DNA of 64,000 nucleotides from Candidatus Amesbacteria bacterium RIFOXYB1_FULL_44_23 (GCA_001773775.1 MEXR01000032.1:7266-71265), one strand, 5' to 3'; positions 5,107 through 25,986 are shown, counted from the first letter of the stretch. The notes: generated from the sequence alone by a model not told the origin. A program made the numbers and translations.

Positions 5107-6168
5107 TCAATTGGGTTGCATTTGCAGCTGAGACCACCAGTTGGAGAGCCAAGCGAAGGCGGTGATTTCGGTAAGGGAAGACTGGGTGAATGTTTCCGTA
5201 AAGGTGACGGCGGGTGGAGCGCTGATGGTTTTTTCGACGTGGGGGCCGAAAGATTTACCACAGTGGGGACACGGGTCGTGGCCAAAAGTGAGAACGGTAC
5301 CAATTTCCCGGCAACAAAGCGGACATCCTATGCAAAATACTTCCTGACCGATATGGAAATCGTAGGAGGCGGAAGTGGAAACGTAGACTGAGTTTGATTC
5401 CCCGCATCCGGAACCGGAAAAATCCATTGATTGACCTGAGATACTTACCATCTGGGTTTCGGCCTGAGCCCCAACCCGGTGCGGGGAGACGTCTTTAGCT
5501 AAATCAGCCTGAATGGCGATGGCAACCGGAATCATGTCTTGAGTGAGCTTTTGGCAACGGTTTTTAATTTCTCCGGAGTTGATTTGGCCCCAGACTTCGT
5601 CTGGTAAGTCGATCCAACGTTGAGCCAGTTTGCAAAGGTCTGTTGGGGAAGATGACGTAACGGAAAGAGGGGTCATGGCGGCGTCCTGGTTATGCAGGGG
5701 GGGGAGGTTTTTGGTGTCTGAAATGAGGGCAAATTGGTTAAGTCTGGCTTCGGTTTTTTGGGGGGATTCGTGGCGAAGCGGAATTCCGTAGGCGTCAAAA
5801 GTAACGGCGCCGTTTTGGTTTTTGACAAAATACAAATCGAGCCGGCCTTCAGGAAAATTGCTGGCCGGGCTGACCAGAATTACCAGTCGGTGTCGGTTGT
5901 CAGGGGTGCTTTGAATATGTCTTTCCAGATCCAGGGCAGCCAGAGAAGCATCAAAATCCGGTTTTTTAGTACTCAGGTTTTGGGGCAGACGGTTAAACCA
6001 CCAGATGCGATTCGGATCAATGTCTTTGTTAGTAGAAGCGGCTTCTACATTGAGCGAGGCGACGTCTGAGCTAACTTCTTCAAGAGGGGACGATCGGTAT
6101 AGGGAAACGTCGAGAGCGACGCGGGATTCGTTTGACATAGATTTTCCTGCTCGGGAACAGTGAACCAT
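5107..6168 (-). CDS. Hypothetical protein with C-terminal zinc-ribbon-like Cys cluster (CIGCPLCC...CPHCGK)
   Basis: 353-aa ORF with no recognisable catalytic motif; C-terminal cysteine cluster. Confidence 0.45.
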   Translation of the reverse strand: MVHCSRAGKSMSNESRVALDVSLYRSSPLEEVSSDVASLNVEAASTNKDIDPNRIWWFNRLPQNLSTKKPDFDASLAALDLERHIQSTPDNRHRLVILVSPASNFPEGRLDLYFVKNQNGAVTFDAYGIPLRHESPQKTEARLNQFALISDTKNLPPLHNQDAAMTPLSVTSSSPTDLCKLAQRWIDLPDEVWGQINSGEIKNRCQKLTQDMIPVAIAIQADLAKDVSPHRVGAQAETQMVSISGQSMDFSGSGCGESNSVYVSTSASYDFHIGQEVFCIGCPLCCREIGTVLTFGHDPCPHCGKSFGPHVEKTISAPPAVTFTETFTQSSLTEITAFAWLSNWWSQLQMQPN

Positions 6169-6515
6169 TAGTTTTCTGACTTTACAGTTGCGGCACAGTG
6201 GAGGAATTTCACCTCACTTCCTGAAACATGGTTTGGGGACTATATTTGCGGATTCGGGGTAGAATGTCAAGAAGAAAATGAACGCAGAAAACAGCCGTTA
6301 TTTGCTATGTTGTTGCGGAAGTAAGCTGAAATGTCCGACTTCGGTTCTGATAACCAGCATCTGGAAAGATGACGGACTGTGTACAGCTAACTGTCAAAGA
6401 AAAATCGACCAGGGATGGGTAGGCGAAGTTGAGCCGGTGGAAATACTACCAAACAGTGAAGGGAAGGAAGTGGCGGTGTGTGTTTTTGGAAGAATGTATG
6501 TTTTGGAGTGGAAAA

Positions 6516-7547
6516 CTATTGGGTTTTGCGGTCTGCTGCCAGAAGAGGTTTTAGAACCCGGGCAAGTTTTGCCGGATCGTGACGGATGCGATACAGTGTC
6601 GGAGTGATGCTGAAGACGTCTGCTTTAACAGGGGTAATATCGGATTTGATAAGTTCCTGAAGCTGAGAGTCGGTCCAGCCCAGAAAGTGTGAATGTTCGG
6701 CGGCGTAAGTGTCGGCTACTTTGGGATACTTGGTATCAAATTGATTTTCGGTAAGATGGGGACAGATAAAATAATCAAACGGATGTTTGAGCTTAGTGTA
6801 TTTTTGGAAAAGTCGAAGAAAATCGGCAGGTGAGAAACGATGAGTCTGGTTGCGGTTGGAAACCAAATTACTAACAAAAATGGTGGTGGCCTTTGAGGAC
6901 TTTAAGGCCGAAGTGATGCCGGTGGGAAGAAGATTACTGATAACCGATCCGTAGATACTGCCGGGGCTGTAAATGATGTGAGTAGCCTCCTGGATGGCGG
7001 TGACGGCTTGTTTGGTTGCTTTAACCGGGCGATCCAGCCAAATGTGAGTGATGACATTGGTGGAGAGGGACTGTTTGTCCAATTCATGTTCGCCGCAGAA
7101 AGTGTTGCCCAGCGAAGTGCTAAAACACAAATTGGCTGGTTCTGAGGTAATGGGAATGGCAGTACCCTGGAAGTGGATACCCAACAGTTGTTCTAAGTGG
7201 GATTGAACTTTTATAAAATCACCGTGGTATTTTTCCAGGAGAGCGTAGTAGATGGTGTAGCCGAGGTTACGGTTGCGGCCGTCGGTAAAGCTGACCAGGT
7301 CAATAAAAGATGAGACCTGTTCCAGATGATTTTGCTTGTCAGAAACCAAAGCCAGCAGGTTTCTAAGTAAGTCGGAAATGGCAATTACCCGGTCTCGTTC
7401 ATCGCTTCTGATAACACCGGTTTTACCGCCGCTGTCAGTGGAGGCTGAGACGGCTGAAATGTCAGTAAATCCAGCCATGGCCAGGGATTTGAGGATGGTA
7501 GGGGATCCGGTGCCGCCGCCTATAGTGACAATTTTAGTAGTTTTCAT
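6516..7547 (-). CDS. YvcK/CofD-family (UPF0052) protein
   Basis: N-terminal IVTIGGGTGSPTILKSL matches the GGGTG motif of the gluconeogenesis factor / 2-phospho-L-lactate transferase family. Confidence 0.5.
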   Translation of the reverse strand: MKTTKIVTIGGGTGSPTILKSLAMAGFTDISAVSASTDSGGKTGVIRSDERDRVIAISDLLRNLLALVSDKQNHLEQVSSFIDLVSFTDGRNRNLGYTIYYALLEKYHGDFIKVQSHLEQLLGIHFQGTAIPITSEPANLCFSTSLGNTFCGEHELDKQSLSTNVITHIWLDRPVKATKQAVTAIQEATHIIYSPGSIYGSVISNLLPTGITSALKSSKATTIFVSNLVSNRNQTHRFSPADFLRLFQKYTKLKHPFDYFICPHLTENQFDTKYPKVADTYAAEHSHFLGWTDSQLQELIKSDITPVKADVFSITPTLYRIRHDPAKLARVLKPLLAADRKTQ

Positions 7548-7553
7548 TCAAAA

Positions 7554-7784
7554 TCAGGGTTTGTTGCCTAAGACAAATCTAAGCGTTTCTTTCTTTTCTG
7601 CTTGGAATTCTGGCTTCTTCATAATTCTGAGCGCATTTTGGCGATGCCTTTCGGCGCTTTTTTCGTCACCTCTCAACTCCGCTTCCAGAGCCATACCAAG
7701 CTCTAACTGAGCTTTTTCTTCTGCCGTGGAGGGAGGCGCTAAGAATTCGCTTCTCATAATGGTGATGATACTACTTGGAATCAA
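7554..7784 (-). CDS. Small hypothetical protein
   Basis: 76-aa ORF, charged and helical; no motif. Confidence 0.25.
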   Translation of the reverse strand: MIPSSIITIMRSEFLAPPSTAEEKAQLELGMALEAELRGDEKSAERHRQNALRIMKKPEFQAEKKETLRFVLGNKP

Positions 7785-7992
7785 CTTTGGGGGTGGTTGA
7801 GTGGGAGTCGGTGGTAGTAGTACCCAGGACTTTTAAGTTTTGACGACGATTGTTTAGAGTTAGGGCGGTGTATGAGATGACGATAGTTAAGGCCAGAAGT
7901 GAAACCATGGCCAGGCTAAAAGAGGCGCGGTGAATCAGCCGCCAGTCAGATGAGCGCATATAGAATTTAGGCTGAGGGAAATCTTCGTACAT
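7771..7992 (-). CDS. Small membrane protein, hypothetical
   Basis: 73-aa ORF with one TM segment (ASFSLAMVSLLALTIVISYTAL). Confidence 0.3.
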   Translation of the reverse strand: MYEDFPQPKFYMRSSDWRLIHRASFSLAMVSLLALTIVISYTALTLNNRRQNLKVLGTTTTDSHSTTPKVDSK

Positions 7993-8021
7993 GCGGTGAT
8001 ATTATATACCCAGGGTGAAAT

Positions 8022-8867
8022 ATGTTAGGAAAAAGAATAAAACTGGCGGTTGAACATGAGTGGGACTTTTTAGGATCAAAACAAAGCTATCGAAAGCTGG
8101 GGCAAGGTCTGCCGGTAGTTTTGTTGCACGGATCGATGGTGGCTGACCCCTGGGACGGATTTGAAAAACGGCTGGCGGAGCATTTTGAAGTGTATGTGCC
8201 GGATTTGCCAGGTTTCGGGGCTTCGGATGCGATTGAAGGCCGGGTGCATGACACACAATTTTTTTCTGAGGCTTTAGCTGAGTTTTTGAAACACAGTAAA
8301 TTGGAGCAGGCGCCAATAATCGCTTTTTCTCTGGGGGCGGTGGTAGCAGTGAAGACGGCATCGGGCGGAGGGACTTTGGGAAAGCTAATACTGGTGGGGC
8401 TACCCATCAGACTTGAAAGTAAACTATTGGATCAAATTTGCCGGATGCCGCTTATTGCCAGACGGGTACTGGCAACTGATGAACTAACCCGAGGAGGCGT
8501 ACTTCTGGCAATACTAAAAGACGTAATCGGGATTACGGAAGCTAAATTTTTGCCGAAATATTTAAATTTGCTGCGCACAACCGACGTGCGGGCGATGGTG
8601 GACACGGATCTGATTTCAGAAGTGGAGAAAGAGTTGCCGTGGTATTTAAACCGGATAACTAATCCGGTTTGGTTTGTCTACGGAGAACATGACAAGCTGA
8701 AAAACGGAGCCGAGAAGTGGCTACAACGGCGGATAATGGTGGTTAAGGGAGCCGGGCATGATGTATTTATCGGGCGGCCCGAGGCCACTCTGACACTAAT
8801 TAGAAGGATTTTGGAAAAACAACAAAGTCTTTGGGACAAAATCAGGAGGTGGTGGAATGGGGCGTAA
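8022..8867 (+). CDS. Alpha/beta-fold hydrolase
   Basis: VVLLHGSMV (oxyanion HG), nucleophile elbow AFSLGAVVA (GxSxG-like), and His in GAGHDVF near the C-terminus. Confidence 0.6.
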   Translation: MLGKRIKLAVEHEWDFLGSKQSYRKLGQGLPVVLLHGSMVADPWDGFEKRLAEHFEVYVPDLPGFGASDAIEGRVHDTQFFSEALAEFLKHSKLEQAPIIAFSLGAVVAVKTASGGGTLGKLILVGLPIRLESKLLDQICRMPLIARRVLATDELTRGGVLLAILKDVIGITEAKFLPKYLNLLRTTDVRAMVDTDLISEVEKELPWYLNRITNPVWFVYGEHDKLKNGAEKWLQRRIMVVKGAGHDVFIGRPEATLTLIRRILEKQQSLWDKIRRWWNGA

Positions 8868-10179
8868 AGTTTTTATTGCAATATTGATTTTGGGATTTTT
8901 GGTGTGGGTGCATACCCGGGGGTTTGTAGTCGGGGATGAGGGATATTTATTAAATGCCGGAGCCCGGATGATGGATGGTCAATGGCCGTATCGGGATTTT
9001 CAATTTGTGTATCAGCCATTAACGGCTTATTTAAATTTTTTGGCGTTTAAGTTTTGGGGAGTAAGTATTTTGTCGTCGCGGGTAATGGCGATTTTAGTCA
9101 GCGGTCTGGGAGTCGTGGCAATTTTTAAAATATTTGGACAAACCAAGTGGGGGATAGCGGTAGTGGTGAGTTACTTACTGTGGGGTCCGGGACAAATTAA
9201 TTTTTTGGCCCCGACAATGATTTGTTTGGCGTTGGGACTATGGCATGTGTGGGGGCTTAAAAATGGAAAATGGATGCTGGTTGGAGTAACAGCCGGACTG
9301 GTAATTCTGACTAAACAAAATTTCGGACTGGCCATTTTGTTACTTGATTTGTTCTATATAAAAAGGTTTGTAACAGGCTATTTCTACGGTTTATTGGGTA
9401 TTATTCTTGCGCATAGTGTAATTCTTTTTTTGACCGGTTCAATGATGATGTACCTGGTTGAATTGTATGAAACGACAGTAGTTAAAATCGGACTGAAAGG
9501 AATCTTTACCACCGCCTGGCCATGGGAGTATCCGCAACCATTAATTATCAAATTGGTTAAGACAGCAATCTATGCAGTTCCGGCTATTTTGGCGGTTAAG
9601 GAACTTAGAAACGACAAAGTATTGGCATTGTTGGTATTGGCATTTTACGGACTGAGCATTAGACCGACCACTGACTGGATCCATCTGACCCCCTTACTGG
9701 CAATCAGCGGCCTTTTAATTTCTGGGAAATACAGAACGTGGTTTATGGCTGGTTGGATTGCTGCTGGAGTATTGGTTTTGGGGTACGGAGGATATTACAA
9801 GTGGGGGAAACCGATTGTTGAGCAAACGGTGGTTTGGAAAATCGGGTTAGAAGTTCCGGAGCTGGCCAGTGAGAAATATGTTTTTATTTATAGCTACAGC
9901 CCGGGATGGTATGTAGTGTTGGGGAAACAAAATCCAACCCCTTACGACTATCTGCATTCAGGAATATTGGACACCAAAATTGAGAGGAGAGTAATCGGTG
10001 AATTGCTGGTTAATAAAGTTCAATACGTACTGGCTGACGGGCAATTGGAGGCTGATAGATCAAGGATTGCCGAGTTTGTGGTAGCCAATTACAGTAAAGT
10101 AGCGGTGGTTGAGAATCTGACACTATGGAAATCAAATTCAGTTTTGTATGCACTGGAAACGGGGACTAATAGTAGGTGA
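8857..10179 (+). CDS. Polytopic membrane protein, probable GT-C-fold glycosyltransferase-like
   Basis: At least 10 TM helices. A DE motif (VVGDEGYLLNAG) sits in the first extracytoplasmic loop, as in ArnT/PMT-type glycosyltransferases. The start overlaps the upstream gene by 11 nt. Confidence 0.4.
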   Translation: MGRKVFIAILILGFLVWVHTRGFVVGDEGYLLNAGARMMDGQWPYRDFQFVYQPLTAYLNFLAFKFWGVSILSSRVMAILVSGLGVVAIFKIFGQTKWGIAVVVSYLLWGPGQINFLAPTMICLALGLWHVWGLKNGKWMLVGVTAGLVILTKQNFGLAILLLDLFYIKRFVTGYFYGLLGIILAHSVILFLTGSMMMYLVELYETTVVKIGLKGIFTTAWPWEYPQPLIIKLVKTAIYAVPAILAVKELRNDKVLALLVLAFYGLSIRPTTDWIHLTPLLAISGLLISGKYRTWFMAGWIAAGVLVLGYGGYYKWGKPIVEQTVVWKIGLEVPELASEKYVFIYSYSPGWYVVLGKQNPTPYDYLHSGILDTKIERRVIGELLVNKVQYVLADGQLEADRSRIAEFVVANYSKVAVVENLTLWKSNSVLYALETGTNSR

Positions 10180-10227
10180 GTAGGGAGTAAGCCTTGCGGG
10201 AATCTTGCGTTAATTATGCGGGAAAAG

Positions 10228-10563
10228 TTATTTTTGAGCAACAAGAAAAGCGATGATACTGAGAATGTAGACGCTAAGCCAGAGAGTAGTAAAAATGACC
10301 AGTTTTACGGCTTTTTTTGGTTGCTTGCTGTCCCAAAAAAGTAAAAATGCCTGACCTAAAAACATCAAAGAAGTGATGACAGCCGAAACGATGAATAACG
10401 ACAAAAATAAGGCCGGTCCGAGAATGCTGGGTGAAGATCCAAACCAATGGTTACCGTTTAGCATGATCGATCCGATTAAAAGACAGTAGACAAAGATTCC
10501 GGTTGCCTGCAGGAAAGCGGTAAATTCCAAAGAAAGTTTACTTAGCACTAGATTATTATACAC
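10228..10563 (-). CDS. Membrane protein, hypothetical
   Basis: 111-aa ORF with 3-4 TM segments. Confidence 0.4.
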   Translation of the reverse strand: MYNNLVLSKLSLEFTAFLQATGIFVYCLLIGSIMLNGNHWFGSSPSILGPALFLSLFIVSAVITSLMFLGQAFLLFWDSKQPKKAVKLVIFTTLWLSVYILSIIAFLVAQK

Positions 10564-10581
10564 GCCTTGGGAAGGTGGAGT

Positions 10582-10980
10582 TTAGAATGAGGGTTGGAAT
10601 TCAATTTCGGGTTTAATCTGTTGGAATTTAATGGTGGGTTGGGGTGTGGGAGTGGGAGTAATGATTAGTGGTTTTATGGGAAGTTTCGGATTAACTAATT
10701 TCCAGGTTGGTTTGGGAGTGGGTTGGGGTGTGGTGGTGGGGGTAGCAGAAGGGGCAATGGTAGAAGATGGGGTGGCTGGAGCAGGAGTTTCGCTGGGTGA
10801 AGGAGTGACAGTAGGAGTAGTTTCGGTCTGGGCGGAAAGAACTTGTTTTTGACGGGTGCCAAAGTAGTATGCGGCGGCAACGACTCCGACCAAGAGTAAG
10901 GTAATGGCGATGCCGGAGATAAAAAACTTAGCAGATCCAGAGGAGGTTTTGGGAGTCGGAGTGAGGGTATTGTCTTCCAC
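10582..10980 (-). CDS. Membrane-anchored Pro/Thr-rich protein
   Basis: N-terminal TM segment (FISGIAITLLLVGVVAAAYYF) followed by a TPTVTPSPSETPAPATP low-complexity linker. Confidence 0.45.
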   Translation of the reverse strand: MEDNTLTPTPKTSSGSAKFFISGIAITLLLVGVVAAAYYFGTRQKQVLSAQTETTPTVTPSPSETPAPATPSSTIAPSATPTTTPQPTPKPTWKLVNPKLPIKPLIITPTPTPQPTIKFQQIKPEIEFQPSF

Positions 10981-11061
10981 TAGTTTCGGATAATAGTCTC
11001 AAATAAATCGCATGTCAATCCTGGTTTAATTGTCACCATCTCCTTCCTATGTCCTATAGGA

Positions 11062-11070
11062 TGGTATAAT
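11062..11070 (+). promoter_or_regulatory. Extended -10 element (TGGTATAAT) 10 nt upstream of the ATG of the 11080 gene; probably a leaderless transcript
   Basis: tggTATAATgctcaaatcATG; no room for a Shine-Dalgarno sequence. Confidence 0.4.
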
Positions 11071-11079
11071 GCTCAAATC

Positions 11080-11928
11080 ATGTTTGATAAAGAAATTGGT
11101 GATAAGTATGGTCCGAAGAATGAGCCATATTTGGGGGCTAGAGTATTGGCTTTGCTACCCAGGTTGATCGGTAAAAGAGGCGAGTTTGTAGTTGGATTAT
11201 TTTCATATCTGAGGTGGGTGGATGACTTGATGGATGAGGGGAAGCAACCTACCAAGTCTAAGCTCGAATTTATGGAGCGGCAAATGGTGCTGGCAACCGG
11301 GATTGATGAAATTAAGCCAGCAAACCCCGAACCAGAAGAAGAATTTTTTTCCAATCTTCCGTGGAACGTAGTGCCCAGGGAAACTCGTCACAGAGTTCAG
11401 ATGATTTTGGGGTCTGTGATTGATGACGTAAATAATCAAGGATTCAAGGTTAGAACAGATCGAGAAATAAGGCATTACAACTGGAGGACAATGTGGCCAA
11501 TTATGGACGGGTTATTTCTGGTTTTAAATGGAAAACCTGCAAAGCCAGGAGTTCAGGTTATGAGGTTTTTGGATGCTTGTGTCAGGATAGGGAGCCTGGA
11601 GGGTTTGGGTGACGATTTGTCCCAGGAGGTAATAAAGCTGCCTGTGGAGTTTGAGAGAGAGACTGCAGTAACAAAGCAATCGGTGCTAGAAAAATTAGAT
11701 GAGAAGTGGTTTTCCGCAGAGAAAAAAAGAAACCTGAATGAGATTGCGGTCAATGCGTTGGGATTTTTGAAATTAGATATTCCGGCGTGGCAGAAATTGT
11801 TGTGTCTTGGCTATGCTGCTGAAATTTTGGTAACTAAGAGCTTGGGAGTTAGTCTAAAAAAAGCAATCCAAGGAGCTGTATCCGAAACGGTAGATGTTGG
11901 AAATTTGAATGAGACAGAAGCCATATAG
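11080..11928 (+). CDS. Squalene/phytoene synthase-like (head-to-head isoprenoid synthase fold) protein
   Basis: YLRWVDDLMDE matches the (Y/F)xxCRxxDDxxD first Asp-rich motif. The size (282 aa) fits the family; the second motif is weak. Confidence 0.35.
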   Translation: MFDKEIGDKYGPKNEPYLGARVLALLPRLIGKRGEFVVGLFSYLRWVDDLMDEGKQPTKSKLEFMERQMVLATGIDEIKPANPEPEEEFFSNLPWNVVPRETRHRVQMILGSVIDDVNNQGFKVRTDREIRHYNWRTMWPIMDGLFLVLNGKPAKPGVQVMRFLDACVRIGSLEGLGDDLSQEVIKLPVEFERETAVTKQSVLEKLDEKWFSAEKKRNLNEIAVNALGFLKLDIPAWQKLLCLGYAAEILVTKSLGVSLKKAIQGAVSETVDVGNLNETEAI

Positions 11929-12026
11929 ACGAGATCGAAAAAGTAATGCTGAGGCGGTTTTAGGAATAGAGATTTGGCCAAGATTTGAGTGAGGATTTAC
12001 TGCGCTGTTAGCTCATGTCCTATAGT

Positions 12027-12055
12027 TTGACTTTATAAGGAAAAATGCTTATAAT
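12027..12055 (+). promoter_or_regulatory. Consensus sigma70-type promoter TTGACT-N17-TATAAT
   Basis: ttgact (12027..12032), 17-nt spacer, tataat (12050..12055), 26 nt upstream of the ATG at 12082. Confidence 0.55.
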
Positions 12056-12081
12056 GCCGCCATATTTGTTGCGGGAAGCCT

Positions 12082-13176
12082 ATGAAAATACCGGCGGATT
12101 TATCGAGAGCTTTGACGGGATTTAGGCGGGTTTTTACAGGCGTTAATAAACAAAGCAAAACCAGGATAAATGACAGGGAAAAGATAACGGTAATTTTGAC
12201 CGGGTTCGGGGGAAAGGATGTTTTGGGAAATTGGTCCGGGGAAACGGCCCCTTTCTTAAAGGAAATGAAAGATCTTTTGGACGTAAGAAATAAAGTGCGA
12301 TTGTGCAATTTGGCATATGAAGGAGAACTGTACGGAAGCCGGGTTTTGGTAGCGGCAACCGGAATGGCTAAAGTGAAGACCACGGCCTGTTTATCAGAGA
12401 TTCTGCATGTTTATGATAAGAAAATAAGAGAGGTTATTTTGGTCGGGATTGCCGGCATAACCCCAATGAAGGGCGGGATTTTAGATAGTTTGGGAAAGGT
12501 GCGAAAGTCGGAGCCGGCCATGTTGGGTGATGTTTGCGTCAGCTTTCTGGCAGTGGATTACGATTTGCAGCATTATGGTGCCGATTGCGGCAGATCGAGT
12601 TTGCCGGAACCTAAATTTTGGGATCAAAAAAGCACATTTCAGGCTAAGTTCATAAAGGGAGATAAGAAGTTGGCAGATGAGCTTCTTTCTGCCTGCAAAA
12701 AAGTGCGCTGGCCGGCTGTACCTAAGGGGGTGGAAAAAATTAACACCTTATATCACTCCGGAAGCCGATTTCCTAAAGTGTGGGAACCTTGGGAATGTCT
12801 GGAAGTGACCAGTGACTTATATTGGCACGATTTAAGATCTGATTGCAGAGCCCGGGAGCTGGCCGGAGGACTGTTGAGGAGGGAATACGGCAGGAAAATT
12901 TCCCCAGATTCGGTGCTGGTAGTTTCTTCCATGGAAGCGGTGGCCTGCGGGGCAGTTGTGGAATGGTGGAACAGGGATCACAAACGGGCAATTGGGTTTT
13001 CTTACGTCAGGGGGGCTAGTAACTTTAGTCACCCATATGTAGACACTGACGGAAAGCCGGTTTTAGGGGCCCTGGAGAGCCTGAAAATGTCGGCAAAATC
13101 GGGAGGGGCCTCGTATGCAATGCAGACTGAAGCGTTACCGGTATTAAAAATGCTTGAATTGAGATCATATGTTTAA
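12082..13176 (+). CDS. Nucleoside phosphorylase superfamily protein (PNP_UDP_1; MTA/SAH-nucleosidase-like)
   Basis: ...SRVLVAATGMAKVKTTACLSEILHVYDKKIREVILVGIAGI parallels the MTAN/PNP SGIGKV...A..T and V(I/L)N.G.AGG core. Confidence 0.5.
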   Translation: MKIPADLSRALTGFRRVFTGVNKQSKTRINDREKITVILTGFGGKDVLGNWSGETAPFLKEMKDLLDVRNKVRLCNLAYEGELYGSRVLVAATGMAKVKTTACLSEILHVYDKKIREVILVGIAGITPMKGGILDSLGKVRKSEPAMLGDVCVSFLAVDYDLQHYGADCGRSSLPEPKFWDQKSTFQAKFIKGDKKLADELLSACKKVRWPAVPKGVEKINTLYHSGSRFPKVWEPWECLEVTSDLYWHDLRSDCRARELAGGLLRREYGRKISPDSVLVVSSMEAVACGAVVEWWNRDHKRAIGFSYVRGASNFSHPYVDTDGKPVLGALESLKMSAKSGGASYAMQTEALPVLKMLELRSYV

Positions 13177-13720
13177 TAGTTTGAAAACAAATGTCGCATT
13201 ACTAATGCAGAGCCCGAAGGACTACTTGTATTCCTTTGTATATTCGGATAACTCGAAAGTGGAAATACGCCGGTTTGATCCCAGATCGGTAGCGGCGGCT
13301 GAAAAACTAATTAAGAAACTTAAGAGGCTTTGTCCTAAGATAACAGTTGTTTTAATCGGATCGGTAGGCTTGGGAATTGACGGCCGGGGAGACATTGATT
13401 TGTGTGCCTGTGCTGCGAAGACTAAACTGCCGGTTTATTACCGGAGGATAACAAAAAATTTCGGTAAACCGGTAAAAATCAGAAGTGAATTTCGGCAGTG
13501 GGAGTTTGAGAGAAATGGTTTTCCGGTAGAGCTGTACTTGTCTAATACAAAAGACCAAAGATTTAAAGAGCAAGTTAGATTGTTTAACTTGCTGAAAAAT
13601 AATCCAGCTTACCTACGGGAGTATCAGAGCATTAAAAGATTAATGAACCATGGATCTGAGAGAGAGTATGTATTAAGAAGAATGGAGTTTTTTAACAGGA
13701 TTTCGGGCCAAAGACAATAA
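13169..13720 (+). CDS. GrpB-like nucleotidyltransferase-fold protein
   Basis: IGSVGLGIDGRGDIDL matches the GS...DxD nucleotidyltransferase motif; the size and C-terminal region fit GrpB/UPF0157. Confidence 0.5.
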   Translation: MFNSLKTNVALLMQSPKDYLYSFVYSDNSKVEIRRFDPRSVAAAEKLIKKLKRLCPKITVVLIGSVGLGIDGRGDIDLCACAAKTKLPVYYRRITKNFGKPVKIRSEFRQWEFERNGFPVELYLSNTKDQRFKEQVRLFNLLKNNPAYLREYQSIKRLMNHGSEREYVLRRMEFFNRISGQRQ

Positions 13721-13766
13721 ATGTTGACTGGAAATTTATGGGCGGGAAGCTATACTTATTTAAGAG

Positions 13767-14171
13767 ATGAAACCTGAAAAGGTGATGCTAGTTGTGAGCG
13801 CAGTAGTAATTGCGTTGGGAGTGGGGATTTACGCGGTAAAAGCGACTGGATTCTTCAAAAGAGTCGGTGGTAGAGTTGTTACCAATCTGTTTGAAGTTAA
13901 GTGTAAAGAAAATGAAGAATATGTAGTGACCCAGGCAGGCGGAAAGAAACTTTGTGTCAAAAGACCAAAAGACGGAGGTAAAAGTTGCACTAAAAGCAGC
14001 GAGTGTGAAACGGGTAAATGCGTGAGTAAAGAATATTATGGAGCTACTAGCGGAACCTGTTTTAATTCAAACTACCACCAGCCTTGTATATTTTGGTTGT
14101 GGACGGTTGAAGAATCTCAAGCCCGGGAAAAACCAGCAGCTAATGTTATTCAGGGTCCTTGTGTTTATTAG
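13767..14171 (+). CDS. Secreted/anchored small cysteine-rich protein
   Basis: N-terminal signal/anchor (VMLVVSAVVIALGVGIYAV) followed by a Cys-rich region (CVKRPKDGGKSCTKSSECETGKCVSK...TCF...PCVY). Confidence 0.5.
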   Translation: MKPEKVMLVVSAVVIALGVGIYAVKATGFFKRVGGRVVTNLFEVKCKENEEYVVTQAGGKKLCVKRPKDGGKSCTKSSECETGKCVSKEYYGATSGTCFNSNYHQPCIFWLWTVEESQAREKPAANVIQGPCVY

Positions 14172-14269
14172 GTGTTAATAGAGAAGGTATTAATAGTCGT
14201 TTTGTAACCGCAAGTGGTTAGTGGTCCGAAAGGAGATTTGAAAAACGAATCTTGTTATAATTCCGGATT

Positions 14270-14839
14270 ATGGTTTTGCAGAAAGGTGAAGTTGTAGGTT
14301 TGTATATTGCGGCTCAGGGTCAAAGACCTAAAGAGGGACTGCGAAGAGCGGCGATGAATCCGGTAGATTATGTGTTAGCCGTAGCGGGATTTGGATTGAT
14401 GGGTGACAGATATTACCTAAACAGGTTACTGGGTTCTTATTCTAAAACGGCCCGAATTCCTGACATTTTTCGTCAAGTTACGTTTATGGGAATGGAAGAT
14501 TTTGAGGCCGGGGTTTTGGAGATGAGTGGTCGGATGGATATACGTGAAACGCGGAGAAACATCATAACCAGGGGAATCGATTACCGGGAATTGAAGAAAA
14601 AAACTATTCGGATAGTCAGTGATTCAAGAACCAGGAGGTTTGCCGGATTTTTAACCGAGGAAGAGTGTACTCCTTGTAACATCCCCGATGACGGAAAGTT
14701 GGGATTTAAGGAGGCTTTCGGTTCTGAGTGGAGAGGAGGAGTAAGAGCTCAAGTTACGAAAACCGGGTTGGTGGAGATGGGATATCAGGTGTTGGTGATG
14801 GACCGAAAACCAGGGATAATTACAGACGCACAGCAGTAG
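14270..14839 (+). CDS. MOSC-domain-like protein (tentative)
   Basis: Pattern of Gly and conserved Arg (RRNIITRGID, GFKEAFGSEWRGGVRAQV) resembles a YiiM/MOSC beta-barrel; weak. Confidence 0.35.
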   Translation: MVLQKGEVVGLYIAAQGQRPKEGLRRAAMNPVDYVLAVAGFGLMGDRYYLNRLLGSYSKTARIPDIFRQVTFMGMEDFEAGVLEMSGRMDIRETRRNIITRGIDYRELKKKTIRIVSDSRTRRFAGFLTEEECTPCNIPDDGKLGFKEAFGSEWRGGVRAQVTKTGLVEMGYQVLVMDRKPGIITDAQQ

Positions 14840-14854
14840 CAGTAACTATGATGT

Positions 14855-15139
14855 TTAAGGCAGAAAATAGGCGACTAGCCACAGCGGAATAGCAGTCAGG
14901 GACAGTTTTCCCAGAAGTCCGATATAACCTCTTTTTAAGACGACAAATCCACCAGCAATGCCTGTGACATCAAGGGGAAAGGTAACCAGGTTGCAATAGG
15001 GTTTGCACCAATTGTGAGGCCGGTGCAGTATGTCCGTTAAGCCGTTATTTAAGTTCAGGGTTTGCAGAATATCTCTACCCAGATGGTATAGGGAGAAGGC
15101 AAGAAGGCAGATGAAACACAATCTGGCTAATTTAGTCAC
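14855..15139 (-). CDS. Small membrane protein, hypothetical
   Basis: 94-aa ORF with two hydrophobic segments and Cys pairs. Confidence 0.35.
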   Translation of the reverse strand: MTKLARLCFICLLAFSLYHLGRDILQTLNLNNGLTDILHRPHNWCKPYCNLVTFPLDVTGIAGGFVVLKRGYIGLLGKLSLTAIPLWLVAYFLP

Positions 15140-15261
15140 GAATAAAAGTATAACAACTGAGATGAGTATTCATCTCAAATACTGACTTAATAGTTTGCAA
15201 CCAGAACAAGATCAGTTTATGCGATCTGATTGGGGTGAAGTCTGATAGACCCAAAAGCCAG

Positions 15262-15672
15262 TTACTTACAATCCTTTGGACAATTGCAGTAATCTTCGTA
15301 TTGCGAGTCACAGACTCCGTTTCCACACGGGCTGCAAATAGCATTGGGTCCACCCATAATCATGCCGCAGGTTCCTCGACCTTTGTTTGTTGGGGGTTGT
15401 TTTTTCTGGATAGATACCAGTCCGGGACAACATTTTTTAATCTTGATGTCGGGATTTATTTTTCCGGTTCGGAAGTCAAAGTTGCTGATGGGGATTTCAC
15501 CTGCGTTTGAACAGTATGTTTCGGAAGTATTGGTGGCAGGAGTCGTTGAGGGGGAGATTTGATTTGTGTCTGCCTTTTTGGGCAAGACATTTTGATATAG
15601 GAGATATCCTGAGCTTGCAACAAAGATTGCAAGCATGATTAAGGGGAGCAACCCAGAGCCCTTTTGGTTCAC
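15262..15672 (-). CDS. Secreted small cysteine-rich protein
   Basis: Signal/anchor (LLPLIMLAIFVASSGYLLY), Thr-rich linker, then 10 Cys in 60 aa (KCCPGLV...GTCGMIMGGPNAICSPCGNGVCDSQYEDYCNCPKDCK). Confidence 0.5.
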   Translation of the reverse strand: MNQKGSGLLPLIMLAIFVASSGYLLYQNVLPKKADTNQISPSTTPATNTSETYCSNAGEIPISNFDFRTGKINPDIKIKKCCPGLVSIQKKQPPTNKGRGTCGMIMGGPNAICSPCGNGVCDSQYEDYCNCPKDCK

Positions 15673-15807
15673 AATTCAGTATCTTTTAATGTGGGGGAGA
15701 TGTCAATAATTGTGTTTGCAAAACCAGCGAGCAATGCCAAAACCTACTTTTTGATGTTTGTTTGATCGCGTTTTGAATGGCAATGAATATTCAAATAATT
15801 TGTTAGC

Positions 15808-16011
15808 TTAGCCTTGTAATAATGGGCAGTTTGGGTCGCAGTTGCCGTTGCAACTTATGTCGAGGGGCAAGCCATTTTCAGGTATCAAGATGGGAACTCT
15901 CTGATTGCACCATTTTCCATCCTTTCCAGCTTTTAAAACTCCAGCTGCGACTAACTTATCAACGTCGGGATTAATACCGGGATTTGCGAGCTCTCTGCAT
16001 TCTTTTGGCAT
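15808..16011 (-). CDS. Small cysteine-rich protein, hypothetical
   Basis: 67-aa ORF (CNQRVPILIPENGLPLDISCNGNCDPNCP). Confidence 0.3.
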   Translation of the reverse strand: MPKECRELANPGINPDVDKLVAAGVLKAGKDGKWCNQRVPILIPENGLPLDISCNGNCDPNCPLLQG

Positions 16012-16079
16012 GCTTGCATTATATCCCGGGACCCTAGTGAGTAAATTGATGACGATTCAGCCGAAGAATGCGGGCTTTG

Positions 16080-16814
16080 TTAGAGCCTACTTTTAGGATT
16101 TTGGAAATTCACTTGCAAAAGGAGTTGGGGAATTGAAGCGGTGTCGCTTATAAAATAGCGGAATTCTTCCGTGTACGGGTAAATGTATTTCAGCTGCATA
16201 CCACTGCCTGAGGTGCTGCTTTTTGATACTATCCGGGTAAGACAAGCGACTTTTATCTGATCGTTTCTAACCCCGTATATACACTCTGGCTGATAAGTAG
16301 CGCTTTGAGCTCCCTGGGCCGGGGAAAAACTATAACCCGGTTTAACATAATATTTCTGTCCTGACCAGGCGTTTTGTTTGGCCCACTCTAAAGTAGAAAA
16401 TCCCAAAATATCCCTATGATAAGTTGCCTGATCCGGTTGGGTTACTTGATGGTAGTAAACCCATTCCTTTCCGGGGAGATCAGATGAGCCGGTTTTAAAC
16501 AAATTTAAATCTTCTGGGCATGCACCTTTGGGAGGACATTTGCGGAGATCCATTAACCAGTTCAAAACATCCTGATTGGTTATTACTTGAGATTCTGATA
16601 CGGGCGCCCATTTGACTTTGGAAGGTAAAGAGGGAGGAGTAAGACTGGTAGATGTGGGCATGGGGGTAACGTTTGGCGTGGTTGGGGAGGGGTTATCCGG
16701 GTATGGAAGGTTGGTGATGGTTGAAACCTGCGGTGATCTTAAAAATATGATTATAAATACCGAAAAGGTGACAACGGCAACTAACAAGAGGGGGAGAAAA
16801 GACGATTTGGGCAT
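16080..16814 (-). CDS. Secreted/membrane-anchored hypothetical protein
   Basis: N-terminal TM/signal (FLPLLLVAVVTFSVFIIIFL), a Pro/Thr-rich linker, then a C-terminal domain with conserved Cys. Confidence 0.45.
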   Translation of the reverse strand: MPKSSFLPLLLVAVVTFSVFIIIFLRSPQVSTITNLPYPDNPSPTTPNVTPMPTSTSLTPPSLPSKVKWAPVSESQVITNQDVLNWLMDLRKCPPKGACPEDLNLFKTGSSDLPGKEWVYYHQVTQPDQATYHRDILGFSTLEWAKQNAWSGQKYYVKPGYSFSPAQGAQSATYQPECIYGVRNDQIKVACLTRIVSKSSTSGSGMQLKYIYPYTEEFRYFISDTASIPQLLLQVNFQNPKSRL

Positions 16815-16904
16815 GTCCTTTTATATTATTATCCGATCAAACTTTAAATTCAATGTGGTAAGCATGGACAGAGCATTCGAAGCTATGATGTTCTGATTTG
16901 ACAA

Positions 16905-17171
16905 AACGTTGAGCCGGATGGTACCATTCGTCTACAATTTGCAAAAGCGTTTAAGTTTGGTTTCCCGCCAAACAAGCTGCTTGCGATGAGCAAGACGGAA
17001 GTCAACCGTAAGAATGAGACAAAGCGTGTCGGTAACGGAGCGCTACAAGCGTAAGCTTTTAGTTCCACCGAAAGGTGGTTTTTTTGTAGCTTACGAAAGC
17101 AGGGTGGTACCACGAGAAACCTCGTCCTTGCTCTTCAAGAAATATCTTGGAGGGTGAAGGCGAGGTTTTTT
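16905..17171 (+). promoter_or_regulatory. T-box leader (tRNA-sensing riboswitch), presumably proline-specific, ending in an intrinsic terminator
   Basis: The conserved T-box sequence AGGGTGGTACCACGAG lies at 17101..17116. A terminator hairpin (acctcgtcctt 17119..17129 pairing with aaggcgaggt 17157..17166, one bulge) is followed by T6 at 17166..17171, right before the ATG at 17172. The downstream operon ends in proS. Confidence 0.6.
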
Positions 17172-18566
17172 ATGTTTACAAATGCAAAACTTATACAAAA
17201 GAACTGGCGAAATACCCTGAAACAAGGGCAGGTGTCTTTGGTGGTCGTGAGGGAGGGAGAGGTTTTGTATGCCAATAAGGTGTCCGGAGTTTCTGGTCTG
17301 GTTGATTGTTTTAAGCAGGATTTATTGTCAGGAAGTGAGGTCTATGACACCAAGATTGGGTTGGCGGCGGCGAAACTTTTAGTGTGGGGGAAGGCAAGAT
17401 CAGTGTTTGCACTTACGGCGAGTCAGTCCGCTGTAAACTTTTGCAAAGCAAATAATCTGGCAGTTGAGAGTGTGAAGCAGGTGGACCGGTTGTACTTTTC
17501 TAATGATTTAGGTGGATGCCTATTTGAGAAGACAGCCTTCGGAGCGCAGAGAGCGGAAGATTTAATCAGGGGTTTGGAAGGACTAGGGGAGGTAAGAGTT
17601 GAGAGGTGTACAAAAGACGGTGTCTTTCCCCTGAATTATTATTCCACGTCAAATAGAAAAACATGGGTCAATCTGCAAGGGAAATGGACTGCGGTCAGGC
17701 ATCCTGAAATGGATAAGGCGATCAGAGTTGGGAGAAAGAAAGCCCGGACTGTGGCGACCTGCGAAGTTAAAAGAGGAGATATGGTAGTGGTCGGAGACGG
17801 GTTGGGGGTGTATGAGGAGAAAGTCGAGTTGAAAAAGGGCCAGGATTTTGGCTTTATGAGTAGTGAGGTTAGTGCAGAGAGGCCCAAAGAAGCACTGATT
17901 GGCAGGGTGGCTGAAATAATGCGGGAAAGCAGGCGAGAGGGTAAGCGAACGCTTTTAGTAGGGGGTCCGGCGATAGTTCATACCGGTTCGGGAAAATATT
18001 TGTCCGGACTAATCCGGTCCGGATGGATAGACGTACTGTTTGGAGGAAACGCCATAGCTGCTCATGACTTAGAAGAAAATTATCTGGGGACGTCTTTGGG
18101 GACAGAGGTGACTTCCGGAAACAGGATTGAGGGGGGTCATCATCATCACCTGAGGACTATCAATACGATTCGGTTTTACGGGGGAATTAAAAATGCCGTG
18201 GTCGCCAAAGTGATTAAATCCGGAATTTTTTATGAGTGTGTCCGAAGCGGAACGAAGTTTGTTTTAGCCGGGTCCATCAGGGACGACGGTCCGTTAACAG
18301 ACGTGATCACAGATTCGGTAAGGGCACAAATGGAGATGAGAAAAGAAACCAGAAATGGTTTCGGCGTAGCCCTGATGGTGGCTACGACTTTACACTCAGT
18401 TGCTACGGGCAATTTGTTGTCTTTTGATACCACCAAAATCATCGTTGATGACAATCTGGCTTCAGTGACTAAGTTAGCTGATCGGGGGACTAATGCCTTA
18501 GGAATTGTGACCGATTGCGCTTATTTTTTGAGCCAATTATGTAATAAGCTGGAGGTGGAGATATGA
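17172..18566 (+). CDS. Conserved hypothetical protein (465 aa) under T-box control, coupled to proS; possibly ornithine-cyclodeaminase/LOR-SDH-like (speculative)
   Basis: The ORF track starts at a GTG at 17154, but that sits inside the terminator and T-run. The first ATG at 17172 is more plausible. The stop overlaps the proS start (ATGA). The C-terminal half has Gly-rich motifs (LLVGGPAIVHTGSG, GGHHHH) and no clear family. Confidence 0.55.
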   Translation: MFTNAKLIQKNWRNTLKQGQVSLVVVREGEVLYANKVSGVSGLVDCFKQDLLSGSEVYDTKIGLAAAKLLVWGKARSVFALTASQSAVNFCKANNLAVESVKQVDRLYFSNDLGGCLFEKTAFGAQRAEDLIRGLEGLGEVRVERCTKDGVFPLNYYSTSNRKTWVNLQGKWTAVRHPEMDKAIRVGRKKARTVATCEVKRGDMVVVGDGLGVYEEKVELKKGQDFGFMSSEVSAERPKEALIGRVAEIMRESRREGKRTLLVGGPAIVHTGSGKYLSGLIRSGWIDVLFGGNAIAAHDLEENYLGTSLGTEVTSGNRIEGGHHHHLRTINTIRFYGGIKNAVVAKVIKSGIFYECVRSGTKFVLAGSIRDDGPLTDVITDSVRAQMEMRKETRNGFGVALMVATTLHSVATGNLLSFDTTKIIVDDNLASVTKLADRGTNALGIVTDCAYFLSQLCNKLEVEI

Positions 18567-19993
18567 AAGATTTTATTAAAAAGAATTTACCCAAAAAGAG
18601 TCAAAGCTTGTCTGAATGGTATAACCGGGTGGTAATGCTGGCTGAACTGGCTGATTATGGACCCGCCAGAGGGACTATGATTTTTCGGCCTTACGGATAT
18701 GCGATTTGGGAAACGGTGCAGAAATACATGGATGAGAAAATCAAGGCCAGCGGGGTGGAGAATGCATATTTTCCGCTTTTTATCCCCGAGTCTTTATTGG
18801 CTAAAGAGAAAGATCATATCAAGGGGTTTGCTCCTGAGTTGGCGGTAGTAACGATCGGAGGCGGAGAAGAATTGAAGGAGAGGCTGGTAGTAAGACCGAC
18901 CAGTGAAACGATAATGTACCAGGCGTATGCCAATTGGATAAAGTCATGGCGGGACTTGCCGGTTTTGGTTAACCAATGGAATAACGTAGTCCGCTGGGAA
19001 AAACGTACTTATCTGTTTCTTCGGACTCTGGAATTTCTGTGGCAGGAAGGACATTGTGCTCATGCGACCTGGGAAGAGTCGTGGGAGAGGGTGCTGTGGG
19101 GAATTAAATTGTACGAGCAAACATATCGTGAAATATTTGCATTGCCAACGGTGGTGGGAAGGAAATCGGAATCTGAGAAGTTTGCCGGGGGTGTGGCGAC
19201 TTTGACTTGTGAAGTTTTGATGCCGGAAGGCAAGGCTTTGCAGGGTTGCACATCGCATGATTTGGGGCAAAATTTTTCCAGAGCACAGAACATCAAGTTT
19301 CAGGATAAAGACAGAAGTGCCAAATATGTCTGGCAAAACAGCTGGGGTTTTACCACCAGATCTATAGGAGGAATGCTAATGGCACATGGGGATGATGCGG
19401 GAGCGGTACTGCCCCCAAGAGCTGCTCCTGTTCAAGTAGTAATCATATTGGCAAAAAGCGAAACCGACGTAACGGAGTATGCCAAAAAAGTTGAGTTGGA
19501 GTTGGTTCAACTGGGTTTAAGAGTGAAATTGGACGATCGGGAAGAGGAGTCAATGGGGTACAAAATCAATAAATGGGAACTGAGAGGGGTGCCCTTACGG
19601 ATTGAAATTGGCATTAAAGAGGTGAGGAGTCAGAATTTGACGATTGTTAGAAGGGACAACCAGACCAGACTTCTGATTTCAAATAACAACTTGGGAACAG
19701 TCAAGACGTTGCTGGACACTATTCAGTCTGATATGTTGGCTAGGCAGGAAAGATTTCTAGCTGAGAATACTTTTGAGGCTATTACGTATAATAGATTTAG
19801 CGAAATAATGAAAACAACGAAAGGTTTTATTAAGGCGTTTTGGTGCGAGCGAGCGGAATGCGAAATGACAATTAAAGAAGAGACCAAAGCTTCGACTAGA
19901 TGCCTTCCTTTGGATGCGCCGAAAGAAAACGGAGTCTGTGTTAAATGCGGTGAACCGGCAATTCACCGCTGGTTATTTGCTCAGGCCTATTGA
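18563..19993 (+). CDS. proS: Prolyl-tRNA synthetase, archaeal/eukaryotic type (no INS editing domain)
   Basis: Class II motifs (FRPYGYAIWE, RPTSETIMY, WNNVVRWE, TRSIGG) and a C-terminal zinc-binding extension. Confidence 0.9.
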   Translation: MKDFIKKNLPKKSQSLSEWYNRVVMLAELADYGPARGTMIFRPYGYAIWETVQKYMDEKIKASGVENAYFPLFIPESLLAKEKDHIKGFAPELAVVTIGGGEELKERLVVRPTSETIMYQAYANWIKSWRDLPVLVNQWNNVVRWEKRTYLFLRTLEFLWQEGHCAHATWEESWERVLWGIKLYEQTYREIFALPTVVGRKSESEKFAGGVATLTCEVLMPEGKALQGCTSHDLGQNFSRAQNIKFQDKDRSAKYVWQNSWGFTTRSIGGMLMAHGDDAGAVLPPRAAPVQVVIILAKSETDVTEYAKKVELELVQLGLRVKLDDREEESMGYKINKWELRGVPLRIEIGIKEVRSQNLTIVRRDNQTRLLISNNNLGTVKTLLDTIQSDMLARQERFLAENTFEAITYNRFSEIMKTTKGFIKAFWCERAECEMTIKEETKASTRCLPLDAPKENGVCVKCGEPAIHRWLFAQAY

Positions 19994-20007
19994 GGAGGTG
20001 ATGATGC

Positions 20008-20343
20008 ATGGCAACTATTGATGATTTTAACGCACTAGATATCAGAGTGGGAAAAATTGTGGAAGTTGAGGATTTCCCCGAGGCAAGGAAACCTTCATAT
20101 AAGCTAACAATTGATTTTGGACCAGAAATCGGGATAAAGCACTCAAGCGCTCAATTGGTTAAGCACTACACAAAAGAAGAGCTAAAAAACAAGCTGGTGT
20201 TGGGTGTGGTCAATTTTCCCCCGCGCCAAATCGGTCCTTTTATATCCGAATCACTTACTCTGGGAGTTCCGGATGAAAACCATGATTGCATTCTAATTGC
20301 ACCCGATAAAGCCACGGCAGTGGTAGGAGGAAAACTATATTAG
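20008..20343 (+). CDS. tRNA-binding domain protein (CsaA/Trbp111/EMAP-like OB fold)
   Basis: LDIRVGKIVEVEDFPEARKPSYKLTIDFGPE is the classic tRNA-binding OB-fold signature. Confidence 0.7.
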   Translation: MATIDDFNALDIRVGKIVEVEDFPEARKPSYKLTIDFGPEIGIKHSSAQLVKHYTKEELKNKLVLGVVNFPPRQIGPFISESLTLGVPDENHDCILIAPDKATAVVGGKLY

Positions 20344-20555
20344 GATTGATTCCAGAATTCGAATTTCGATCTAGCGTCGATACTATTAGACGAGTTCTGA
20401 TCAGGGTTTGGGTGGGTATGGGCGGAAATCCGTTCGAACCTGTTTAGCCATTAAGTTATTATTGGGTTATGTTCAAAATCGTGGCCTGCCCGGTTGATAA
20501 AAGAGAAGTGGGGGAGTTGGCTCGTGAGATCGGGGGCTTTTATATTTGAAAATGT

Positions 20556-20786
20556 ATGACTAAACGACAGGTTTGGCAAACGATAGCCTTGGATTTGAAG
20601 AGAGCGGCTAATTATTTGCATGCTAAGAGATACCGGCAGGCAGAATTTTATTTAGATGAGGCCAAACAACTGTACAAGACCGCTTCTTTTGACGACAAGA
20701 TGCGCTCTGTTGAGAAGTTTATAAGCTTTAGCGGTGATCCGGAAGGGATTTTGTTGGGGAGCAGTATTATTTCAGGGAGACTGTAA
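20556..20786 (+). CDS. Small hypothetical protein
   Basis: 76-aa ORF in an AT-rich stretch. Confidence 0.25.
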   Translation: MTKRQVWQTIALDLKRAANYLHAKRYRQAEFYLDEAKQLYKTASFDDKMRSVEKFISFSGDPEGILLGSSIISGRL

Positions 20787-20875
20787 AACCCGGCTGGCCT
20801 GATGGAAAGTATTCTAGCCTGTTCCTCTCAAATTTAGTATTTACTATCTTTGTAAAATATGTTAGAAGTTCTTAA

Positions 20876-25404: not shown

Positions 25405-25986
25405 TTGGAAAGACAGCCTTTTTGGGTTAATATCGCCCCAGGAACGAGTATGAGTGACGATATTAAATGGGTGGTAGATAATGCAGTGAAGTTATCTATT
25501 TTGGCGATAGCCTTATCAGTGGCATATTACTTTGTATTTTTTTTGCCAAATAAACAGAACCAGGAATTGGAATTAAAAAGGCAACAGTATCAGGACCAGA
25601 TAGTTGCCCAGCAAAAGGAAGACGAACGGGAACAACAAAAGATTTTAGATGTACAGAAACAGGCTGCAGAGAATAGGTCATTATTGGATAAGTGTTTGGA
25701 AAACGCTGAAGATTCGTATCACCTGAATTGGAGAAATAGTTGTAGGACAAGAGGATTAATGCCAAGTGGGTGTGAGGAGGAGTCAATTAACCTGGAGTTT
25801 TCTGATTATCAGAAACAACATAATTTGCCAACTTCTACCATTGAGGGATGGGATGATTATTGGAAAGTTTACAGTGCAAAAAAGGATAAATGTACCTGCA
25901 GCTTGCCTACATATAATGCAGACGACATAACTGAGACTGAAAAAAACTCAAAGGACGAATGCTTTAAAAGATATCCACAGAATTAG
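25405..25986 (+). CDS. Membrane-anchored hypothetical protein (coiled-coil, C-terminal Cys-rich)
   Basis: TM segment (LSILAIALSVAYYFVFFL), a Q/E-rich coiled coil, and C-terminal Cys residues. AT-rich context; alternative start about 25450. Confidence 0.4.
   Translation: MERQPFWVNIAPGTSMSDDIKWVVDNAVKLSILAIALSVAYYFVFFLPNKQNQELELKRQQYQDQIVAQQKEDEREQQKILDVQKQAAENRSLLDKCLENAEDSYHLNWRNSCRTRGLMPSGCEEESINLEFSDYQKQHNLPTSTIEGWDDYWKVYSAKKDKCTCSLPTYNADDITETEKNSKDECFKRYPQN

Follow-up and report, generated by a model that had tools for sequence, protein, structure and literature searches.

What do closely spaced genes for small cysteine-rich proteins contribute to a bacterium with a reduced genome? The question arises from a locus of Candidatus Amesbacteria RIFOXYB1_FULL_44_23, a metagenome-assembled genome from the Microgenomates of the candidate phyla radiation (CPR; locus tags A2397_0194x-0197x, contig of ~93 kb), in a 64,000-nucleotide stretch of DNA that was analysed at its full length and that we refer to as the window. 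Four open reading frames (ORFs), here named A134 (13767..14171, plus strand, 134 residues), B136 (15262..15672, minus strand, 136 residues), C67 (15808..16011, minus strand, 67 residues) and D244 (16080..16814, minus strand, 244 residues), had been portrayed in a preliminary description as a functional cluster of secreted proteins reminiscent of disulfide-knotted toxins and defensins. The ORFs do lie at these positions with these lengths, both peptides quoted from them are present, and the organism, as a member of the CPR, does have a reduced genome. Altogether, our results favor a model whereby the locus probably encodes disulfide-stabilised, membrane-tethered, lineage-restricted small envelope proteins of the CPR cell. 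In this model, the genes are neighbors by lineage-specific juxtaposition and would not constitute an operon or a system.

Cysteine accounts for 6.0% of the residues in A134 (8 Cys), 7.4% in B136 (10 Cys) and 7.5% in C67 (5 Cys), compared with a mean of 1.17% over 79 window ORFs. The density of cysteines noted before thus holds for these three proteins, whereas D244, with 4 Cys and 1.6%, is not Cys-dense when set against the window mean. Cys-rich ORFs (at least 4%) are concentrated in the region, four of them falling within five consecutive ORFs (permutation p about 0.007-0.012), and the GC content of the region is unremarkable. Likewise, the N-terminal signal or anchor ascribed to all four proteins is present in A134, B136 and D244, in which a hydrophobic segment of 19-22 residues (residues 6-24, 7-26 and 5-26, respectively; hydropathy KD19 2.0-3.0) follows a short basic N-terminus and is kept in homologues, whereas C67 has a best KD19 value of 0.63 and no export signal. 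The designation "secreted" is not supported for these proteins, as the alignments, inspected by eye, contain no conserved AxA-type cleavage site and segments of this length suit anchors better; one B136 homologue, described below, has a lipobox. Scans of Pfam, NCBIfam, PHROGs and PDB sequences (the last with single sequences as well as profiles) with the four proteins and the two encoded between them returned no match at threshold. Read directly, the N-termini do not contain the type IV pilin motif, G/(F,M)xxxE followed by the hydrophobic helix.

Relatives of every component were recovered by an exhaustive phmmer search with a concatenated query against 1.84 billion representatives, while a word-index homology search returned three distant B136 relatives only and none of A134 or of TM94, a small membrane protein encoded between A134 and B136. 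At 27-57% identity, the homologues of A134, B136, D244 and TM94 keep the length, the anchor and the positions of the cysteines, and comparison of the Cys patterns revealed conserved spacing in the homologues of all four originally described proteins. Because the spacing is retained in this way, we conclude that A134, B136, D244 and C67 are real genes as judged from their sequences, with C67 the weakest case.

A134 has an ectodomain of ~90 residues with cysteines at positions C46, 63, 74, 80, 85, 98, 107 and 132, at spacings of 16, 10, 5, 4, 12, 8 and 24 residues and without a CxxC pair. All ten homologues (28-50% identity) have an N-terminal anchor. In the family alignment (A2), every sequence has C74, C80, C85 and C98, at least 90% have each of C46, C63 and C107, and most have C132. 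A confident AlphaFold2 (AF2) model with a mean predicted local distance difference test score (pLDDT) of 80, and block means of 86-97 for residues 51-120, describes a small beta-rich domain; a PDB fold search with this model gave no match and retrieved no colipase, Dickkopf or knottin structure. In four of the 11 family members (A134 and three of its ten homologues), the segment C63-C107 aligned with positions 5-52 of the Colipase-like family (PF15083) in the same register, at 12-19 bits against a cut-off of 27 bits (best E 0.0014, 19 bits), so that all of these matches are sub-threshold. Other family members gave sub-threshold matches to Antifungal_pept, the Colipase N-terminal domain, the Dickkopf C-subdomain and Toxin_21, and the match of A134 to Toxin_3 (PF00537; E 0.2, 12.4 bits) is below the cut-off of 21.5 bits. 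Because the sub-threshold Pfam matches recur in the same register, A134 would be a small disulfide-rich domain, perhaps related to the colipase/knottin class. Membership of this class is not demonstrable for A134, which carries no toxin signature. One A134 homologue is encoded 3-6 kb from genes for a DsbA-like protein, a thioredoxin-reductase-type (Pyr_redox) protein and a thioredoxin.

B136 consists of the anchor, a Pro/Thr/Ser linker and a 10-Cys domain ending in CGNGVC-x7-CNCPKDC. The last 60 residues hold nine cysteines, one fewer than previously counted, and the tenth is C54. Together with six homologues, which include metagenome loci, the family comprises seven sequences at 27-49% identity, in which nine of the ten cysteines are invariant and the motifs CCxGL and CGN[GD]xC-x(6,7)-CNCPxDC are shared. 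The tail, CGNGVCDSQYEDYCNCPKDC, has the form CG[DN]G-x-C...E...C..DC. The contexts in which this domain is found vary. The homologue P0023 starts with MLNKALLVIMLIILVSGC, which carries the lipobox LVSGC. A stand-alone anchored homologue is encoded on a contig (L009) that also encodes S27ae, S24e, Spt4, Rpo7 and diphthamide synthase, which identify the contig as archaeal; this archaeal protein has a weak match to Pilin_N (E 0.044), the sole pilin-type match. On a further contig (L010), the domain makes up the first ~136 residues, directly after the transmembrane (TM) anchor, of a 660-residue protein. The protein belongs to a tandem array (2851-9926) of four TM-anchored proteins of 506-660 residues, in all of which the anchor is followed by one or two mini-modules of the form CG[DN]GxC...C..DC (CGDGVCEEGENEENCAEDC). 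Of the three paralogous neighbors of the 660-residue protein, two have weak matches to Glyco_hydro_cc, and one protein of the array matches DUF2334. Separately, two of the array proteins contain knottin-like Cys-rich segments with sub-threshold matches to Toxin_7 (E 2e-4 and 1.2e-3). Because the domain exists as a stand-alone archaeal form, as a lipobox form and as an N-terminal module of an anchored protein, its distribution points to a membrane-proximal binding or spacer role rather than to a toxin, and we suggest that the domain serves as a surface module that can be reused in different proteins.

D244 has a Pro/Thr/Ser-rich stalk (residues 27-65) followed by a globular ectodomain of ~180 residues with the four cysteines, three of which (C93, C178 and C191) are invariant in its four homologues. 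C67 has a single homologue among the 1.84 billion representatives, with 44% identity and 29 identical columns; it keeps C5, C35, C54 and C62, which lie 30, 19 and 8 residues apart, and likewise lacks an export signal. C67 is therefore probably not exported, and it is the least certain gene of the set.

Nothing that we found ties these proteins into a functional unit, contrary to the cluster that had been proposed. The families are unrelated to each other, as hhalign between the families of the Cys proteins matched only the TM helix. Within the window, no paralogues of A134, B136, C67 or D244 were present, and no repeats or mobile-element boundaries surround the genes. A tblastn search with all window proteins against 13 non-identical loci (15 with L014 and L016) recovered one component per locus only, and no neighbors are shared between the longer contexts (L001, L009-L011, L015-L021); the contigs of two homologues (L012 and L013) are not long enough for synteny, and L002 is uninformative in this respect because it is 100% identical to the window. 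In the loci sampled, homologues of A134, B136, D244 and C67 are never adjacent to a TM94 homologue. Neither the B136 nor the A134 family had a relative on viral contigs, and PHROGs gave no match. Because the families are unrelated and never co-occur in the other contigs sampled, the arrangement is best understood as a lineage-specific juxtaposition of genes that appear to be separately transcribed, and not as an operon or system.

In our model, each gene would be transcribed separately from a promoter next to its start codon. Each ORF has a -10-like hexamer 5-10 nucleotides upstream of the start, without a Shine-Dalgarno sequence, and in a scan of 3.8 kb four of the eight promoter-like sites fall exactly at these starts. 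The site of A134 (13729..13756, plus strand) has a -10 box TATACT ending 10 nucleotides before the ATG, with no Shine-Dalgarno sequence; that of B136 (15678..15706, minus strand) reads TTGACA-17-GATACT and ends 5 nucleotides before the GTG; and that of C67 (16018-16045) has a -10 box TATAAT ending 6 nucleotides before the ATG. Because the -10 box is so close to the start and no Shine-Dalgarno sequence is present, the transcripts would probably be leaderless. Many genes that are first in their transcription unit elsewhere in the window have the same arrangement, with a TATAAT-like -10 box ending 5-11 nucleotides before the start and no Shine-Dalgarno sequence (for example, at 11080, 14270, 15139, 16011, 24698, 27968, 38515-39315 and 42183), and operon-internal genes carry GGAGG-type Shine-Dalgarno sites. 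This pattern suggests that leaderless mRNAs may be common in the Amesbacteria genome.

The translated A134, B136 and D244 would then insert via the Sec pathway through the single hydrophobic helix behind their basic N-terminus, placing a linker, which is Pro/Thr/Ser-rich in B136 and D244, and the C-terminal domain outside the cell, where the proteins would remain tethered by the helix or be cleaved. The even numbers of cysteines (8, 10 and 4) would be oxidised outside the membrane by MdbA/DsbA-type machinery of the kind reported for CPR bacteria, giving up to four, five and two disulfides, respectively, and hence small rigid domains at the cell surface. In this scheme, we infer the export topology, the formation of disulfides and a surface binding function. 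In agreement with it, genes for MdbA-like thiol-disulfide oxidoreductases are common in CPR bacteria, frequently with VKOR next to them, and the families enriched in Microgenomates are mostly non-cytoplasmic hypothetical proteins (bioRxiv 10.1101/335083). Three additional ORFs of the window, likewise anchored or lipoprotein-like, have even numbers of Cys in their presumed extracytoplasmic part: 25405-25986 (6 Cys), 26086-26436 (4 Cys) and 44922-46268 (10 Cys), the first two of which have no Pfam match. Because of the MdbA/VKOR complement of CPR bacteria, the DsbA-like gene near an A134 homologue and these other even-Cys anchored ORFs, the locus fits a general trait of the proteome; the three additional ORFs suggest that exported proteins of the disulfide type are a general feature of this genome.

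Several points weigh against this model. The predicted export and orientation are based on hydropathy and the positive-inside rule, and the predicted disulfides on the conservation of the cysteines. The sampling of homologues is thin, with 4-10 sequences per family and one for C67. The six synonymous and two nonsynonymous changes that A134 and D244 together show among near-identical strain variants count in favor of the model, but the substitutions in these variants (L003-L006) are few, clustered and too few for a real ratio of nonsynonymous to synonymous rates (dN/dS). Among the window ORFs scanned, there is no gene for DsbA/MdbA or a true VKOR. Finally, the C-terminal CxxC/CxC of B136 could bind metal, and the profile of alignment A7 weakly matches an AN1-type zinc-finger protein (E 0.023).

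This last point leads to a different reading, in which the cysteines are ligands of Zn or Fe-S, especially in C67 and in the CxxC...CxC...C tail of B136. Such ligands would make sense of the motifs CSPC and CNC in B136 and of C67, which, lacking a hydrophobic segment, is probably cytoplasmic, where disulfides are unusual. However, the absence of a CxxC pair from A134, the position of the A134, B136 and D244 domains after an export anchor, the recurrence of the CG[DN]GxC module in clearly anchored extracytoplasmic proteins and the Cys spacing of C67, which is unlike that of known zinc ribbons, all argue against metal binding, and we consider it unlikely as an explanation for the set.

A bolder proposal starts from the same surface location that we favor. 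CPR bacteria are thought to live attached to other cells, and it is tempting to speculate that these are surface proteins by which an episymbiont touches its host or partner, built from undescribed disulfide-rich folds. A134 would then represent a new small four-disulfide fold without a solved relative, B136 a surface domain exchanged between CPR bacteria and DPANN-type archaea living in the same groundwater, and TM94 a new family of minimal membrane proteins whose WCxxxC site, outside the cytoplasm, is active in redox or metal chemistry. As a whole we hold this combination to be doubtful; the proteins of the region may conceivably have a role in host interaction. The literature on small Cys-rich proteins of CPR bacteria provided general background only.

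The original idea of secreted toxins with a disulfide knot, of antimicrobial peptides resembling defensins or of effectors aimed at a host or a competitor is quite improbable. In its favor are the small size and Cys density of the proteins, the presumed episymbiotic life of CPR bacteria and the sub-threshold Colipase-like and other toxin-type matches of the A134 family; yet no match reaches a curated cut-off, a cystine-stabilised fold resembling solved toxins or defensins was not found, and B136, C67 and D244 have no match to any toxin or defensin family. Moreover, the hydrophobic segments resemble anchors without a conserved cleavage site, among the relatives of B136, one is lipid-anchored and one forms part of a larger anchored protein, the surroundings contain no genes for immunity, transport or maturation, and there is no viral or PHROG link.

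Highly improbable, too, is an oxidative-folding module in which TM94 (14855..15139, minus strand, 94 residues) acts as a minimal VKOR/DsbB-like thiol oxidase beside its Cys-rich substrates. The idea draws on the position of TM94 between Cys-rich genes and on its UniRef name, 'Vitamin K epoxide reductase domain-containing'. It also draws on the conserved residues of its family, which has about 50 representatives at 50% clustering (94-130 residues), one of them from a Kaiserbacteria genome that is complete. Y18-H19-x2-R22-D23-x2-Q26 at the end of helix 1 is conserved in the family, as are H39 and W44-C45-x3-C49 before helix 2, the latter motif being nearly invariant in alignments A5 and A6; by the positive-inside rule, these residues would face outward, so that a W-C-x3-C motif with conserved His, Arg and Asp would lie outside the cytoplasm. 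A Cys pair alone does not, however, define VKOR. At E<=0.1, none of the 47 family members tested matches VKOR (PF07884); the family profile found no VKOR or DsbB among PDB sequences; hhalign against a hand-entered sequence of human VKORC1 gave a probability of 0.08%; and TM94 has three hydrophobic segments instead of a four-helix bundle and no conserved CxxC in its last helix. Its only CxxC, C8xxC11 in the first helix, is unconserved in A5 and A6, and C11 is replaced by Phe (C11F) in the strain variant L004, one of five nonsynonymous changes that accompany five synonymous ones in TM94. The homologues in the Kaiserbacteria genome and on a 70-kb contig (loci L020, 7001-7285, and L021, 7001-7393) have no Cys-rich exported neighbors. 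A degenerate motif pattern made by hand matched genome contigs once, by chance and with stop codons in the match, and a single-protein anchor query gave no match there. We therefore reject an oxidase beside its substrates, since TM94 fails the VKOR tests and its homologues lack Cys-rich neighbors, and conclude from its sequence features that TM94 is a three-TM member of a broad, undescribed family without a Pfam model.

Least probable of all, and hardly tenable, is that chance reading frames in intergenic DNA account for all or part of the ORFs: gene callers disagree on identical DNA and C67 has just one homologue, but the length, anchor and cysteines kept in the homologues of A134, B136, D244 and TM94, the four cysteines among the identical columns of C67 and its homologue, and the -10 box directly upstream of each start all speak for genes. 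The disagreement concerns L002, which is identical to window positions 8276-20839; the Joint Genome Institute (JGI) calls on it omit B136 and TM94, place ORFs of 70 and 66 residues in other frames and cut D244 to 157 residues. Small CPR ORFs are, in short, annotated inconsistently between gene callers. The assignment of the DNA itself is also inconsistent, in that identical A134 and 189-residue proteins and a D244 fragment are deposited under both Amesbacteria and Candidatus Moranbacteria bins (the latter as OGI26897, OGI26898 and OGI26900 on a 7,967-bp contig), probably a binning conflict.

The 189-residue protein is encoded between A134 and TM94 (14270..14839, plus strand). It has two cysteines, lacks an N-terminal anchor, is cytoplasmic and stands outside the Cys-rich set. 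The label "MOSC-like" given to its gene comes from UniRef only and found no backing: there was no Pfam match at E<=1, including to MOSC (PF03473), no NCBIfam match and no related PDB chain.

Setting these readings side by side, the disulfide-stabilised, membrane-tethered envelope proteins that we favor amount to a definition of four uncharacterised families without a Pfam or NCBIfam model (A134-like, B136-like, D244-like and TM94-like), one of which, that of B136, is common to bacterial and archaeal contigs. The analysis also corrects the misleading 'VKOR domain' label of TM94, and it reveals no new mechanism or system.

The window has other notable features. An AdoCbl-II cobalamin riboswitch (6162-6234, minus strand), above the gathering threshold, lies directly upstream of an unannotated ORF of 353 residues with 10 Cys (5107-6168). 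Next to the start of D244, a divergent intergenic region of 339 bp (16815-17153) has 14 substitutions and a 1-nucleotide insertion at 16981-17025 in the strain variant L006; it contains a terminator-like hairpin (17065-17078, plus strand) followed by a T run, ~75 nucleotides upstream of an ArgZ-like/TM1506 gene and without an Rfam match. A tRNA match of 82 nucleotides (32103-32184, minus strand) lies inside a listed TTG-start ORF of 300 residues (31333-32235, minus strand), which means that the ORF either has its true start more downstream or is not a genuine one. Two large proteins are typical CPR envelope components: an anchored protein of 1,398 residues with a PQQ-type beta-propeller and a C-terminal dockerin-like segment (34033-38229, minus strand) and a Wzy_C and TPR membrane protein (40128-42140, minus strand). 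All 2-kb bins of the window (1-64000) have a positive GC skew, of +0.05 to +0.36 and mostly 0.2-0.3; its sign is independent of gene strand, which makes for an unusually strong asymmetry of the replication strands.

How, then, do these proteins compare with known systems? With the colipase, Dickkopf Cys-2 and knottin families (PF15083, PF01114, PF21481, PF11410), A134 shares its center, approximately C63-C107, with the motif G-K-x-C-T-K-S-S-E-C-E-S-G-x-C-V. It differs in being bacterial and membrane-anchored, in arranging its eight cysteines in another overall pattern and in scoring below the respective cut-offs of 21-27 bits, with no support from the fold search. TM94 resembles VKOR and DsbB as a small, polytopic protein with a conserved Cys pair in what would be an extracytoplasmic loop, and departs from them in the number of its hydrophobic segments, in having no conserved CxxC and in showing no similarity by Pfam, PDB or hhalign comparison. 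The tail of B136 and the modules on L010 share the CG[DN]G form, and their occurrence in extracytoplasmic proteins, with the Myxococcus cysteine-rich repeat (TIGR02232) and the start of disintegrin domains (PF00200), a resemblance that we take as a lead only. In B136, however, the module occurs just once, as the last part of a larger domain of 10 Cys. B136 has no NCBIfam match at E<=10 and no such Pfam match at E<=1, and none of the seven family members matched these two families. PsbP/Mog1-like envelope lipoproteins (DcrB, LpqN and Mtc28) are also among the nearest known systems that we listed. Finally, substrates of the Gram-positive MdbA/VKOR pathway include, for example, Actinomyces pilins (Reardon-Robinson & Ton-That, as cited through bioRxiv 10.1101/335083). 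The proteins described here have no pilin signature and no sequence relation to these pilins, and their disulfides are predicted ones; what they would have in common with the substrates of this pathway is that they are exported or anchored, that they belong to a Gram-positive-type envelope and that their stability presumably depends on disulfides.

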